Sequence record: NC_041869.1
Length of the DNA: 64,000 bases
Source of the DNA: Escherichia phage APECc02
Reading direction: 5' to 3' (one strand)
This document shows, in pieces, positions 12,826-14,388 of this stretch (the stretch's first letter is position 1; each line of letters opens with the position of its first letter). Under the pieces are notes generated by a model that searched no databases, had not been told where the DNA came from, and saw only the letters and a program-made list of their open reading frames with translations. The translations under genes were made by a program, and so were the position numbers.

Positions 12826-13163
12826 TGGCGGATACAACTAAAAAGCGTCGCCGTAGAGGCAGACCTCTGAAAGAGGAGTCCAACGCCATTCAGCTAGAGA
12901 AGAACATCCTTGATATGAAGGAATCTTTTATAGCGATGGTTCCAGAAGCTCACAAAGTTTTAAGAGAGCTGATGTTGGACCCGAAAACCAAACAAAATAT
13001 TCGTCAAAGCATTGCAGAGTATGTTCTTGATAAGGCAGACCGAATGCAGGAAGAATATGATGAGATGTTTGGTGAAGAGGAAGAGGTGGTAGTAGAAGAG
13101 GCTGAAAAACCAGCACCTTTTATGCCATTTACCACAGAAATACAGCCTGTTGGCAATAGTTAA
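12826..13163 (+). CDS. hypothetical protein with basic N-terminus and acidic C-terminus
   Basis: Start moved to the ATG at 12826 (GGAGG RBS); KKRRRRGRP N-terminus, EEEEVVVEE tail. The track's 12705 start would run through the promoter. Confidence 0.5.
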
Positions 13164-13172
13164 AATATTTTC

Positions 13173-13201
13173 TTGACAAACTTTGCTTAACAGTGTAATA
13201 T
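13173..13201 (+). promoter_or_regulatory. sigma70 promoter (TTGACA-N17-TAATAT) for the tRNA cluster
   Basis: Consensus hexamers about 60 nt upstream of the first tRNA. Confidence 0.6.
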
Positions 13202-13259
13202 TGTAAACATGGTCTCCCACCTTTTCTGGCGGCTAAGGTGTAAAAGAAAGCCACCCAGT

Positions 13260-13334
13260 GCCCTGTTAGCTTAGTGGATAAAGCAGCGGCCTTCTAAGCC
13301 GTTGACACTGGTTCGAGTCCAGTACGGGGTGCCA
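13260..13334 (+). tRNA. tRNA-Arg (anticodon TCT)
   Basis: Hand-folded cloverleaf: acceptor gccctgt/acggggt (two G-U pairs), D stem gctt/aagc, anticodon loop cttctaa, T arm actgg-ttcgagt-ccagt, encoded CCA. Confidence 0.75.
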
Positions 13335-13338
13335 AATT

Positions 13339-13425
13339 GGGGAGTTATCCCGTAGAGGTAGCGGTGTAGACTGTAAATCTATTGTCATTGCGACTCGGGT
13401 GGTTCGACTCCACCACTCCCCACCA
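13339..13425 (+). tRNA. tRNA-Tyr (anticodon GTA), long variable arm
   Basis: Acceptor ggggagt/actcccc, anticodon loop ctgtaaa, T arm ggtgg-ttcgact-ccacc, encoded CCA; 87 nt type II. Confidence 0.75.
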
Positions 13426-13539
13426 AATTTACATTTTTAAATGCATAAATCATACAGATAATGGCATTGATATTTATCGTCGTTTATACTAGTCACTAAC
13501 TGCTCGAAAATCAGTGTCATTATCAGTATTGTTTATAAA

Positions 13540-13630
13540 TGAGGGTAGGGAGCAATGGTGCTCAAGCGGTCTTGAAAACCGTCCCGTTGAGGATGACTCG
13601 ATGATGGTTCGATTCCATTACCCTCAGCCA
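13540..13630 (+). tRNA. tRNA-Ser (anticodon TGA), long variable arm
   Basis: Acceptor tgagggt/accctca, anticodon stem-loop gcggt-cttgaaa-accgt, T loop ttcgatt, encoded CCA; 91 nt. Confidence 0.7.
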
Positions 13631-13728
13631 TATTGTTGACCTTGTAATTAAGCGAAAGCCGGAAGCAGAACCGGATTATCAAATGTTACAGTCGTCATCG
13701 CCGACTAGCAACATGGTCAACATACTGA

Positions 13729-13825
13729 GCTAGGTAAGCCCTTTGGCAAGGGCGAGGATTTTTAATCCTGAAAATAGACGAGGTAGTCGTTGAATACATA
13801 GGTGGTTCGATTCCATCACCTAGCA
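13729..13825 (+). tRNA. tRNA-like gene, identity ambiguous (anticodon possibly TTT, Lys)
   Basis: Perfect acceptor gctaggt/acctagc, D stem gccc/gggc, T arm ggtgg-ttcgatt-ccatc, but about 30 nt between anticodon arm and T arm, no position-26 spacer, no encoded CCA. Confidence 0.4.
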
Positions 13826-13832
13826 CCTTTTT

Positions 13833-13908
13833 GCTGATGTAGCACAATTGGTAGTGCAATTGATTTGTAATCAATAGGTTGCAGGTTCGAGTCCTGCTAT
13901 CAGCACCA
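13833..13908 (+). tRNA. tRNA-Thr (anticodon TGT)
   Basis: Acceptor gctgatg/tatcagc, D stem gcac/gtgc, anticodon arm attga-tttgtaa-tcaat, T arm gcagg-ttcgagt-cctgc, CCA; 76 nt. Confidence 0.8.
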
Positions 13909-13909
13909 T

Positions 13910-13984
13910 GGCCCTGTAGCTGGAAGGTTCAAGCAAGCGACTCATAATCGCCAGACGGTGGTTCAATTCCACCCAGGGCCACCA
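13910..13984 (+). tRNA. tRNA with CAT anticodon (Met, or Ile2 read via lysidine)
   Basis: Acceptor ggccctg/cagggcc, anticodon loop ctcataa, T arm ggtgg-ttcaatt-ccacc, CCA. The anticodon arm gcgactcataatcgc resembles bacterial tRNA-Ile2 as I recall it. Confidence 0.7.
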
Positions 13985-13995
13985 AATAATAAATA

Positions 13996-14072
13996 CTCCG
14001 CGTAGCTCAGCTTGGTAGAGCGCCTGATTTGGGATCAGGAGGTCGAGTGTTCGAATCACTCCGTGGAGACCA
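13996..14072 (+). tRNA. tRNA-Pro (anticodon TGG)
   Basis: Acceptor ctccgcg/cgtggag with C1-G72, D arm gctc-agcttggta-gagc, anticodon arm cctga-tttggga-tcagg, T arm gagtg-ttcgaat-cactc, CCA. Confidence 0.8.
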
Positions 14073-14118
14073 CTTTCAGTTATACTTTAAACATATACAA
14101 ACAAAAGGAACCTTTAAA

Positions 14119-14388
14119 ATGTATACACTTAAAATTGTAGAGCGTGTAAATCCAACCCATACTGTAGATTTTCGTGACGATTTCAATCCTCTGGCTGTAA
14201 ATCTTCGAGAGTCATATCATGAACTCAGCTGCGATGCAGTGGTGGTCTTTTTTGAAGACAACTCTGAAGGGGCAGTAGCTTGTGTTGTTGATAGTGAGCA
14301 GAAGTTTTATATTTACAGAGATGTAGATGCATACTTGATGAATGAAAATGCAGTTACTGTTAGAATCATCCACCGAGTGCCTCGATAA
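14119..14388 (+). CDS. hypothetical protein
   Basis: Start moved to the ATG at 14119 (AAGGAA RBS); the track start at 14029 lies inside tRNA-Pro. 89 aa. Confidence 0.45.
   Translation: MYTLKIVERVNPTHTVDFRDDFNPLAVNLRESYHELSCDAVVVFFEDNSEGAVACVVDSEQKFYIYRDVDAYLMNENAVTVRIIHRVPR

Follow-up and report, generated by a model that had tools for sequence, protein, structure and literature searches.

Here, we analyze a 64,000-nucleotide (nt) stretch of Escherichia phage APECc02 (NC_041869.1; hereafter the window, whose positions are used throughout) and find that the aberrant member of its transfer RNA (tRNA) cluster, an element at 13729-13827 on the plus strand, belongs to a discrete family of five-armed tRNA-like RNAs. 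A sequence-only reading of this DNA had picked out the element as one of seven clustered tRNA genes, and had suggested Lys(TTT), with a question mark, as its identity. The family very probably represents a conserved and functional kind of tRNA-like RNA, as opposed to a broken tRNA or a plain tRNA-Lys. In the literature searched on rV5, the Vequintavirinae, phage tRNAs and non-canonical tRNAs we found it nowhere described, and no paper that treats the five-armed element as a family. Our proposal for its role is more tentative, and we favor it without calling it probable: that the element is the Vequintavirus copy of this conserved family and acts as a tRNA mimic in counter-defence, either as a decoy or as a cleavage-resistant stand-in for tRNA-Lys.

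The element is named '???(atcc)' by ARAGORN, and scores 35.5 bits against the Rfam tRNA model and 104.1 bits against R1, a covariance model of the five-armed family. Its parts, all on the plus strand, are as follows.

13729-13827, plus: the five-armed tRNA-like RNA as a whole
13729-13735 with 13818-13824, plus: acceptor stem, 7 base pairs (bp)
13736-13737, plus: A8 and A9
13738-13753, plus: D arm, followed by G at 13754
13755-13769, plus: 'anticodon' hairpin AGGAU-UUUUA-AUCCU
13770-13776, plus: 5' joiner GAAAAUA, single-stranded and near-invariant across the family
13777-13791, plus: extra hairpin GACGA-GGUAG-UCGUU, its structure kept and its sequence free
13792-13800, plus: 3' joiner GAAUACAU plus A48, single-stranded and near-invariant across the family
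13801-13817, plus: T arm GGUGG-UUCGAUU-CCAUC, whose C56 pairs with G19 of the D loop
13825 and 13826-13827, plus: A73 and CC; A76 is not encoded, and the end reads A73-C-C-U
13828-13832, plus: UUUUU linker from the element to tRNA-Thr

The minimum free energy fold of the element is this five-arm shape (-34.2 kcal/mol, z = -3.66, with none of 200 shuffles as good), and the Rfam tRNA model (positions 1-71) aligns along its full length, accommodating 26 inserted nt in the variable region. The spacing of about 30 nt that had been noticed between the anticodon and T arms measures 31 nt (13770-13800) and holds a 5-bp hairpin; the acceptor stem and T arm, described earlier as perfect, keep all their pairs in 16 of 16 family copies. 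With canonical tRNAs the element shares the 7-bp acceptor, the 5-bp T stem, a T loop of the GTTCRANYC type and the G18-G19 elbow with positions 55-56. It resembles a class II tRNA in outline, but departs from a canonical elongator in its U8:A14 pair, in the architecture of its variable region and, across the family, in the 7-nt U33 loop. The 'anticodon' hairpin can be drawn in two registers, with 5 bp and a 5-nt loop or with 4 bp and the 7-nt loop UUUUUAA; the latter, with anticodon UUU at 13762-13764, requires the U-A pair 13759/13765 to be left open. ARAGORN's four-base 'atcc' anticodon is rejected by comparison with relatives, since the UUUU/AAAA stem of that fold is impossible in Seunavirus and Mydovirus and it is the AGGAU/AUCCU stem that covaries instead. 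Nor can a parent tRNA be named, since the body without its insert has 65-72% identity to many isoacceptors (Thr, Arg, Gln, Cys and Gly). A search of 13100-14150 against Rfam with E-values up to 1 returned, beyond the tRNA clan, just weak matches below threshold (Plastid-ycf2, YrlA, mascRNA and permuted tmRNA), each of which falls on an ordinary tRNA.

Comparison of family members shows how strongly this architecture is held. In an alignment of 16 sequences we scored 22 pairs, 7 in the acceptor stem, 4 in the D stem, 5 in the anticodon-type stem, 5 in the T stem and the tertiary pair 19:56: all 352 stem cells hold standard pairs, and 9 of the 22 pairs show change on both sides. The covariation score is 0.421 versus 0.148 for shuffled alignments, with none of 500 shuffles reaching it, and a control in which pairing partners were slid by 1-3 columns brings pairing down to 33-44%. 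The elbow pair 19:56 is G-C in eight copies and U-A in eight, with D loop UUUGGCAA accompanying T loop UUCGAUU and D loop UUUGUCAA accompanying UUAGAUU; this covariation between G19:C56 and U19:A56 argues for selection on an L-shaped tRNA fold. The 7/5 acceptor/T architecture is found in all copies, and A8 and U14, the reverse of canonical U8:A14, are the same in all 20 aligned copies. MAFFT was unable to align the extra arm, misplacing a gap in the hairpin of the uncultured contig L061, and extra arms were folded sequence by sequence. Each of the 16 copies has a hairpin there, with at least six unrelated stem sequences among them (GACGA/UCGUU, GACGG/CCGUU, CCCUCC/GGGAGG, UCCCCC/GGGGGA, GCUCUC/GAGAGU, GCC/GGC and others). 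Its flanks, CUG-AAAA(A)UA and (G/A)AAUACAU-AGG, hardly vary, the outliers being contigs L061 and L069/L070 with joiners GAAAAC and UAAUACAU or AAAUACAU. The variable region, 31 nt in the window, reaches about 40 nt in relatives, with connectors of 7-8 single-stranded nt.

The five-armed family is discrete. Model R1, built on the 16 sequences, recovers 25 loci at 87.8-123 bits, including seven copies absent from the alignment rows, and finds one family copy per locus; ordinary tRNAs in 309 kb of phage sequence score at most 28 bits, and a deletion remnant in phage V18 scores 34. Family members were gathered with sensitive BLAST, four pattern scans over viral contigs and one scan of metagenomes. 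They amount to 27 distinct sequences in some six Vequintavirinae lineages: Vequintavirus; Avunavirus (Av-05) and TH18; the Seunavirus phages SalP219, NINP13076 and EspYZU15; the Mydovirus phages Mydo, KB57, KPP-1, Ro1, K45 and K54 phages, and AV124; 4MG and LNA4; and the uncultured contigs L061, L069 and L070. In one genome each of 185,579 bacterial and archaeal species we found no copy, the five pattern matches being chance occurrences in unrelated coding sequence, and the family thus looks phage-restricted. Public records name the element tRNA-Lys, tRNA-OTHER, tRNA-TERM or tRNA-???(atcc), or omit it, and most leave it unannotated; ARAGORN overlooks it in Av-05, TH18 and the Seunavirus locus, and the rV5 type paper lists six tRNAs with the seventh element unmentioned (PMC3606486).

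Two features of the surroundings of family members are recorded here. The most divergent member, that of L061 (JACCDQ011973359.1, 1071-1177, minus strand), lies alone between two protein-coding genes, outside any tRNA array, on a 2-kb contig that also has an HNH-like open reading frame (ORF) and a CAU tRNA preceded by promoter sequences of the TTGACA type. In some Mydovirus phages an HNH homing-endonuclease gene stands between tRNA-Thr and the element (Raoultella phage Ro1, locus L030, 1108-1500; also Klebsiella phage K18PH07C1), an insertion into the tRNA array that resembles segB inside the T4 tRNA cluster.

The anticodon loop is among the most constrained parts of real tRNAs; in the five-armed family the corresponding loop is, after the extra arm, the most variable part of the molecule. 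Its stem has 5 bp throughout the family. The closing pair, Watson-Crick in 25 of the 27 distinct copies, is C-G in 12 and U-A in 4 of the 16 aligned copies; Vequintavirus, the Avunavirus type and L061 carry the U-A form, Seunavirus and Mydovirus the C-G form. The loop inside has five nt (UUUUA, UUAUA or AUCAA) or six (CAUCCA, CAGCCA, CCGCCA, CCUCCA, CUUCCA or CCUCAA). Opening the closing pair gives a loop of 7 nt in the five-nt group and of 8 nt in the six-nt group, in which position '33' is A, C or U, and U in the rV5 and Av-05 lineages only. In the window copy the 7-nt register combines UUU (13762-13764) with A73 (13825), and anticodon UUU and discriminator A73 are identity elements of lysyl-tRNA synthetase (LysRS). 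This Lys identity is not kept among the orthologues, in which UUAUA occurs with U73 or C73, AUCAA with U73 and the six-nt loops with U73, so that the loops are UAU-, UCC-, GCC- or UCA-like. The suggested Lys-TTT identity is defensible in the rV5 lineage alone, on its UUU, A73 and 7-nt register, and does not extend to other genera, which differ in loop and discriminator. Phages with the 6-nt-loop form also encode genuine tRNA-Lys (two copies), tRNA-Gly(UCC) and tRNA-Ile, and the element is therefore not their source of those tRNAs. In the window ORFs AAA makes up just 56% of Lys codons, so that Lys supplementation offers no convincing motive.

A second unusual gene accompanies the element in Seunavirus and Mydovirus, where the tRNA directly upstream is also non-canonical, with C33 and a fast-evolving anticodon loop. 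Its loops are ACGAUUA or ACGAUUC (7 nt, called Ile-GAU), ACAGAUCC (8 nt, ???(agat) in ARAGORN) and ACGAUA (6 nt, ???(ga)), the last annotated as tRNA-Ser in the Mydo record. These genes lie at L032 2929-3003, L033 1428-1500, L031 about 1427-1503, L024 2929-3003 and L027 about 1429-1503; in LNA4, 4MG and L050 that place is taken by another tRNA, Arg(GCG).

We propose that the element would be transcribed from the cluster promoter, released by tRNA-processing enzymes (RNase P at the 5' end; trimming and CCA repair at the 3' end), and folded as an L shape with an added domain at its inner corner. A tRNA-binding protein would then mistake it for a tRNA, and the element would not serve as a standard elongator. 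In the rV5 lineage, loop and discriminator may have been remodelled into a look-alike of tRNA-Lys(UUU), with UUUUUAA and A73, and our best guess is that this would act in counter-defence against tRNA-Lys-directed nucleases of the PrrC, RloC or PARIS type, as a decoy or as a cleavage-resistant stand-in. Several features together point to a mimic and away from a standard decoder: the RNA is tRNA-like in its shape and in the context of its processing, most lineages conserve CCA, both U33 and the 7-nt loop have been lost, the loop changes fast, and full sets of real tRNAs coexist with it. As to processing, most relatives have just 2 nt ('AT') between the CCA of the tRNA before and the start of the element, a tight packing of the kind that would be expected of an RNase P substrate, and U73-CCA is encoded at the 3' end in Seunavirus, Mydovirus, 4MG, L061 and L069/L070.

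The anticodon stem-loop of E. coli tRNA-Lys reads GUUGA-CUUUUAA-UCAAU and that of the element, in the same register, GAGGA-UUUUUAA-UCCUG, with 10 of 11 positions identical from 30 to 40. AriB, the nuclease of PARIS, cleaves E. coli tRNA-Lys at U36AAUC|A41 and needs the UAAU motif; U39A abolishes cleavage, and A41C 'substantially inhibits' it (PMC12409363). The element carries U36AAUC|C41, keeping the UAAU motif and having the A41C change. The resistant tRNA-Lys of phage T5 has both U39A and A41C (PMC12409363; PMC11464382), and this PARIS-neutralizing tRNA-Lys(UUU) is the nearest functional precedent for the element: both are RNAs of Lys(UUU) type from E. coli phages and both have C41. They differ in that the T5 tRNA is a canonical 76-nt molecule, shown to be of charged type and cleavage-resistant, whereas U39 is retained in the rV5 element, which has a non-canonical body and is known here from sequence, and whose orthologues in other genera are not Lys-like. 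The second-best AriB substrate is tRNA-Thr(UGU), and the element lies directly beside the phage tRNA-Thr(UGU) in the window and adjacent to it or one gene apart in most relatives examined. With these observations, the earlier suggestion that the cluster serves evasion of anticodon nucleases may be said to gain some circumstantial support.

Several points weigh against this proposal. The window copy can be drawn with a canonical 7-nt loop (U33, UUU, A37) and A73, as in a real tRNA-Lys, and the argument that the element is not a decoder leans mainly on other genera. The match of anticodon to discriminator is itself weak evidence, A73 being the commonest discriminator, and the Av-05 type, with UAU and U73 or C73, fits no synthetase rule. 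The closing pair of the anticodon-type stem is a C.A mismatch in L069 and L070. Diversity in the family is low, with an effective sequence number of 1.34 and perhaps six independent lineages, so that the covariation counts stand for few independent events. Encoded CCA has been lost in the lineages with smaller genomes, whose ends read A-CC-U (window), A-CA-U (in the diverged relative L009), U-AC-A (Av-05) and C-AC-A (TH18); host 3' trimming and the CCA-adding enzyme could complete such ends, as for some T4 tRNAs. In Escherichia phage V18 (L006, 1451-1547) a deletion joins the 5' part of tRNA-Tyr to the last ~47 nt of the element, taking out tRNA-Ser, a structured spacer RNA described below (spacer 2) and most of the element, and the element and these neighbors are thus dispensable in at least that phage, whose record also annotates no tRNA-Pro. 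The phage tRNA-Thr(UGU) retains in its anticodon stem-loop the host-type U36AAUC|A41 site (as defined in PMC12409363), which weakens a story specific to PARIS. The mechanism, finally, is something we infer at every step.

Four rival explanations were weighed. That the element might be a decaying, functionless tRNA pseudogene is suggested by the several ways in which encoded CCA has been lost in Vequintavirus and Avunavirus, by the V18 deletion and by inconsistent software calls, but every copy pairs in all stems, with compensatory changes, and from genus to genus the joiners, D loop and T loop scarcely vary. Window and L009 copies of the element share 97.9% identity, compared with 87.9-100% for the six tRNAs and 32-64% for unconstrained linkers, so that it evolves as slowly as the genuine tRNAs that adjoin it, and 107 of 127 phage records are at least 99% identical to it. 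This conservation in the window lineage shows that the element is not a decaying pseudogene, an idea that is largely refuted and that we regard as very improbable. An operon-processing or architectural module, recruiting RNase P or RNase E and, in the rV5 lineage, working with the U run at 13828-13832 as a partial terminator, would explain why the element is packed tightly against other tRNAs, and would fit a terminator-like call spanning the T arm and UUUUU, the lack of a terminator after tRNA-Pro (with the operon probably reading into the ORF at 14119) and the solitary copy of L061 between two ORFs. A cleavage signal alone, however, needs no invariant joiners, conserved elbow pair or encoded U73-CCA. 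The U run is specific to Vequintavirus (4 U in the diverged relatives L008 and L009, 6 in slur16, with other genera having no such run), and an acceptor helix that encloses 83 nt (positions 8-89) three bases before it makes poor terminator geometry; on this geometry we judge an intrinsic terminator formed by the T arm and UUUUU unlikely, and the module as a whole improbable.

Two further explanations would have the element carry an amino acid. It could be an aminoacylated tRNA-like RNA used for a recoding event or as amino-acid donor to a non-ribosomal transferase: most lineages conserve U73-CCA, the 8-nt and 6-nt registers recall frameshift-suppressor tRNAs, and UCA-like loops, which recall UGA readers, occur in three lineages (NINP13076, L061 and L069/L070), while the neighboring gene in those phages likewise has loops of 6, 7 or 8 nt. 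The Seunavirus/Mydovirus loop N-N-[U/G]-C-C-A together with U73, G1-C72 and C2-G71 comprises what we take to be five of the six identity elements of E. coli glycyl-tRNA synthetase, a lead and not a test. Position 3:70 is not G-C, U33 is missing in most members, the window lineage has neither CCA nor the Gly-like features, and we identified no transferase or recoding site, the downstream genes being for lysis and structure; we give this explanation a low probability. A genuine elongator tRNA-Lys(UUU) with an oversized variable arm, charged by LysRS through UUU and A73 and decoding AAA and AAG when host tRNA-Lys is cleaved by PrrC, RloC or PARIS, is in our view unlikely. The Rfam tRNA model runs end to end through the element with loop UUUUUAA and anticodon UUU at 35.5 bits against a threshold of 29, tRNAscan-based annotations say tRNA-Lys/AAA, and A73 is confined to the lineage with UUU. 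The rV5 lineage, moreover, has none of the canonical phage tRNA-Lys genes kept in Seunavirus and Mydovirus, and ribosomes are generally known to tolerate the long variable arms of class II tRNAs. Both the 10-of-11 match to host tRNA-Lys, with its A41C change, and the T5 variant tRNA-Lys as a precedent (PMC11464382) would also suit such an elongator. Against it, the 7-nt register leaves nucleotide 26 missing and makes 27:43 a G.G mismatch, positions 32 and 38 (U32-A38) covary in Watson-Crick fashion throughout the family, and A8/U14 stand in place of U8/A14. The 31-nt variable region and its 7-8 nt single-stranded joiners have no precedent among the decoding tRNAs of one review (PMC7609411). 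The closest relatives, Av-05 and TH18, have UAU with discriminators that no synthetase rule fits, A76 is not encoded, the AAA share of Lys codons is below expectation if supply were limiting, and ARAGORN and several pipelines give the element no name.

Set beside known RNAs, the family has partial likenesses. Class II tRNAs (Ser, Leu, Tyr) also have a fifth arm between the anticodon and T arms, a 7/5 architecture, the G18-G19 elbow and a place in tRNA operons. Their arms, however, are connected by at most a few bases, where the family has invariant single strands of 7-8 nt in a region of 31-40 nt, and they do not share its A8/U14, its 5-6 nt loop mostly without U33, or a discriminator and 'anticodon' that shift between genera. 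The tRNA-Sec, selC* tRNA-Cys and allo-tRNAs resemble it in their long variable arms and in a D arm that may combine a 6-bp stem with a 4-nt loop; some have variable anticodons, and some five-stem allo-tRNA-like forms are reported to be translation-inactive (PMC5389517; PMC7609411). These RNAs have 8/5, 9/4, 8/4 or 9/3 architectures and G73 for seryl-tRNA synthetase, whereas the family is 7/5 with U73 (A73 in the window) and invariant joiners. We reject an identity as tRNA-Sec or allo-tRNA on the 7/5 of all copies, the lack of G73 (U, A or U/C instead) and the absence of any match of the tRNA-Sec model on the element. The tRNA-Other of B. cereus (PMC3399842) and the bacterial Y RNA YrlA (PMC4201824) are likewise tRNA-shaped, with reported non-decoding roles of their own, but are chromosomal, unrelated in sequence and differently built; the YrlA model gives a weak match elsewhere in the cluster (25 bits versus a gathering score of 69) and none on the element.

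The nearest analogue in concept is the pair of T4 stable RNAs C and D (species 1 and 2), which are also non-tRNA RNAs inside a phage tRNA operon; at 119-139 nt they have another architecture and no CCA. Homology to rnaC or rnaD was tried and rejected, blastn-short giving 7-9-nt words only and R1 matching the ordinary tRNAs alone in the T4 locus. T4 rnaC (L071, 2909-3047, minus strand) has a T arm, CCGGG-UUCGAAU-CCCGG, directly before the 3' strand that pairs with its 5' end in an acceptor-like stem. Its predicted fold makes it another tRNA-like RNA that has a large insert, and its sequence is not related to that of the element.

The other six genes of the cluster are ordinary tRNAs, all on the plus strand.

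13260-13334, plus: tRNA-Arg(UCU), called by ARAGORN; Rfam tRNA model 67.8 bits; encoded CCA, discriminator G
13339-13425, plus: tRNA-Tyr(GUA) with a long variable arm, called by ARAGORN; Rfam 29.9 bits versus gathering 29; encoded CCA
13540-13630, plus: tRNA-Ser(UGA) with a long variable arm, called by ARAGORN; U1-A72, G73, encoded CCA
13833-13908, plus: tRNA-Thr(UGU), called by ARAGORN; Rfam 76.2 bits; encoded CCA
13910-13984, plus: tRNA with anticodon CAU, of Ile2 type; Met(cat) in ARAGORN, tRNA-Ile/ATA in the BASEL annotation; encoded CCA
13996-14072, plus: tRNA-Pro(UGG), called by ARAGORN and Rfam; encoded CCA; 85.7% identical to T4 tRNA-Pro

The cluster is real, ordinary and already annotated. 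ARAGORN reports exactly the seven tRNA-type genes of the sequence-only reading, all on the plus strand between 13260 and 14072, and none elsewhere in the 64-kb window, and the Rfam tRNA model (RF00005) places six of the seven, the element included, above its gathering score of 29. The exception, tRNA-Ser(UGA), matches in Rfam the tRNA-Sec model alone (40.2 bits, below its gathering score of 47), as is usual for a long-arm tRNA. Encoded CCA terminates all six normal genes, and on their identities ARAGORN, Rfam and the sequence bear out what had been folded by hand. For the CAU tRNA, the choice left between Met and a lysidine-read Ile2 can be narrowed to the latter. Among the E. coli matches listed (~80% identity, 4,498 genomes), all are annotated tRNA-Ile, as are the BASEL gene and the T4 counterpart, the Thr-CAU pair aligning with the T4 Thr-Ile pair at 76%; its 1:72 pair is a paired G-C, so it is not an initiator. 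By these comparisons it is of Ile2 type, a putative AUA reader after lysidine modification. A role of the six in codon supplementation, also raised earlier, is plausible: in window ORFs of at least 150 codons AGA accounts for 36% of Arg, AUA for 22% of Ile and ACA for 37% of Thr codons, and the rV5 paper finds the same phage-host contrast for AGA, ACA and CCA codons (PMC3606486).

Two spacers of the cluster contain structured RNA.

13445-13536, plus: spacer 1, a long AT-rich hairpin (not a tRNA) between tRNA-Tyr and tRNA-Ser; z = -4.03, 0 of 200 shuffles as good
13634-13722, plus: spacer 2, a structured RNA between tRNA-Ser and the element, closed by an 8-bp helix of 13634-13641 with 13715-13722

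The spacer 1 hairpin, which contains a weak promoter-like site at 13461-13490, keeps its pairing in relatives (a G.U and C-G become G-C and U-A in L009; a G.U becomes A-U in L008) and could serve as a processing site of the RNase III type or as a small RNA. From tRNA-Ser to the element the spacer measures 98 nt. Spacer 2 has an invariant 64-nt core (13646-13709) with hairpins CCGG-AAGCAGAA-CCGG and AGUCG-UCAUCGC-CGACU, inside a closing helix of 8-15 bp that is formed from five unrelated sequences, in rV5-type phages, L009, lambda, D6/P7 and the Salmonella siphovirus ST1UNAM. In lambda (NC_001416 44853-44937; L042 688-772) it lies in the late-operon leader between orf-64 and S; in P1-like D6 (L043 ~1187-1282) and P7 it again directly follows tRNA-Ser(UGA), and in ST1UNAM it is at about 1188-1281 of L044. 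It has no match in Rfam, and occurs, never annotated, in 426 of 5,426 complete E. coli genomes. By this comparison spacer 2 is a second conserved structured RNA, one that phage lambda shares. Directly downstream of the spacer 2-type RNA in D6, at L043 1287-1407, is a sub-threshold match (39.6 bits versus 47) to STnc100, a Salmonella small RNA.

Upstream of the cluster stands a promoter-like site from which it would be expressed.

13173-13201, plus: sigma-70-type promoter-like site TTGACA-17 nt-TAATAT, matching at 10 of 12 positions

Its -35 is perfect, and the diverged relatives L008 and L009 have the same two hexamers; its -10 matches at 4 of 6 positions, and 'consensus', as it had been called, is too strong a word for a match of 10 of 12. 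Promoter-like sites in the region are not above chance (4 observed, 3.2 expected), and the leader at 13203-13259 has no significant fold (z = +0.71). At the other end we find no terminator-like site after tRNA-Pro, in an unstructured 47-nt gap (14073-14119, z = +1.19), so that transcription from the tRNA promoter may continue into a 270-nt ORF (14119-14388) and the lysis and structural genes. This ORF starts behind an AAAGGAA ribosome-binding site, and the nearest terminator-like site (14228-14240) lies within it. In a carefully annotated relative, small hypothetical genes precede the cluster and the 270-nt ORF, spanins, terminase and the structural module follow it, with no tRNA-related enzymes among these neighbors.

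The likeness of the cluster to the T4 tRNA repertoire, remarked on earlier, holds for five of six anticodons (tct, cat, tgt, tga and tgg) and for the Pro and Thr-CAU genes, but the cluster is not part of a T4-like phage. The tRNA cluster is 100% identical to that of Shigella phage CM1 and ~99% to those of FV3, rV5 variants and several BASEL phages, and the BASEL relative MaxTheCat is classified as Vequintavirinae; Vequintavirus. By sequence identity, then, we place the source phage as rV5-like (Vequintavirus), and not in the T4-like Straboviridae. About 18 unannotated records named as Campylobacter phages (MG0656xx; C12, C14, A147 and others) are also 99-100% identical to the rV5-like cluster; they are probably mislabelled or contaminants.

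A wider version of our proposal is more speculative still, and we think it rather unlikely: that the family represents a new class of phage counter-defence RNA, in which a mimic with an extra domain made of the joiners and hairpin switches the 'disguise' of its loop and discriminator to match whichever host tRNA is under attack, trapping or blunting tRNA-cleaving nucleases such as AriB, PrrC or RloC. The disguise would be Gly-like in phages of Salmonella, Klebsiella and Cronobacter and Lys-like in the E. coli rV5 lineage, and the non-canonical tRNA upstream of the element would be a second player in this strategy.

The element is misnamed or overlooked in most public genomes sampled, and tRNA counts and codon-usage analyses for the Vequintavirinae, a subfamily that includes therapeutic-candidate phages, are therefore inconsistent. 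Why phages carry tRNA genes has been debated for fifty years, and recent work indicates that some of these genes counter tRNA-cleaving immunity. A family that has the shape of a tRNA, lacks a decoding loop and carries a module of its own offers a clean test of whether mimicry or decoding is the function under selection, and rV5-like phages in the BASEL collection infect E. coli K-12.

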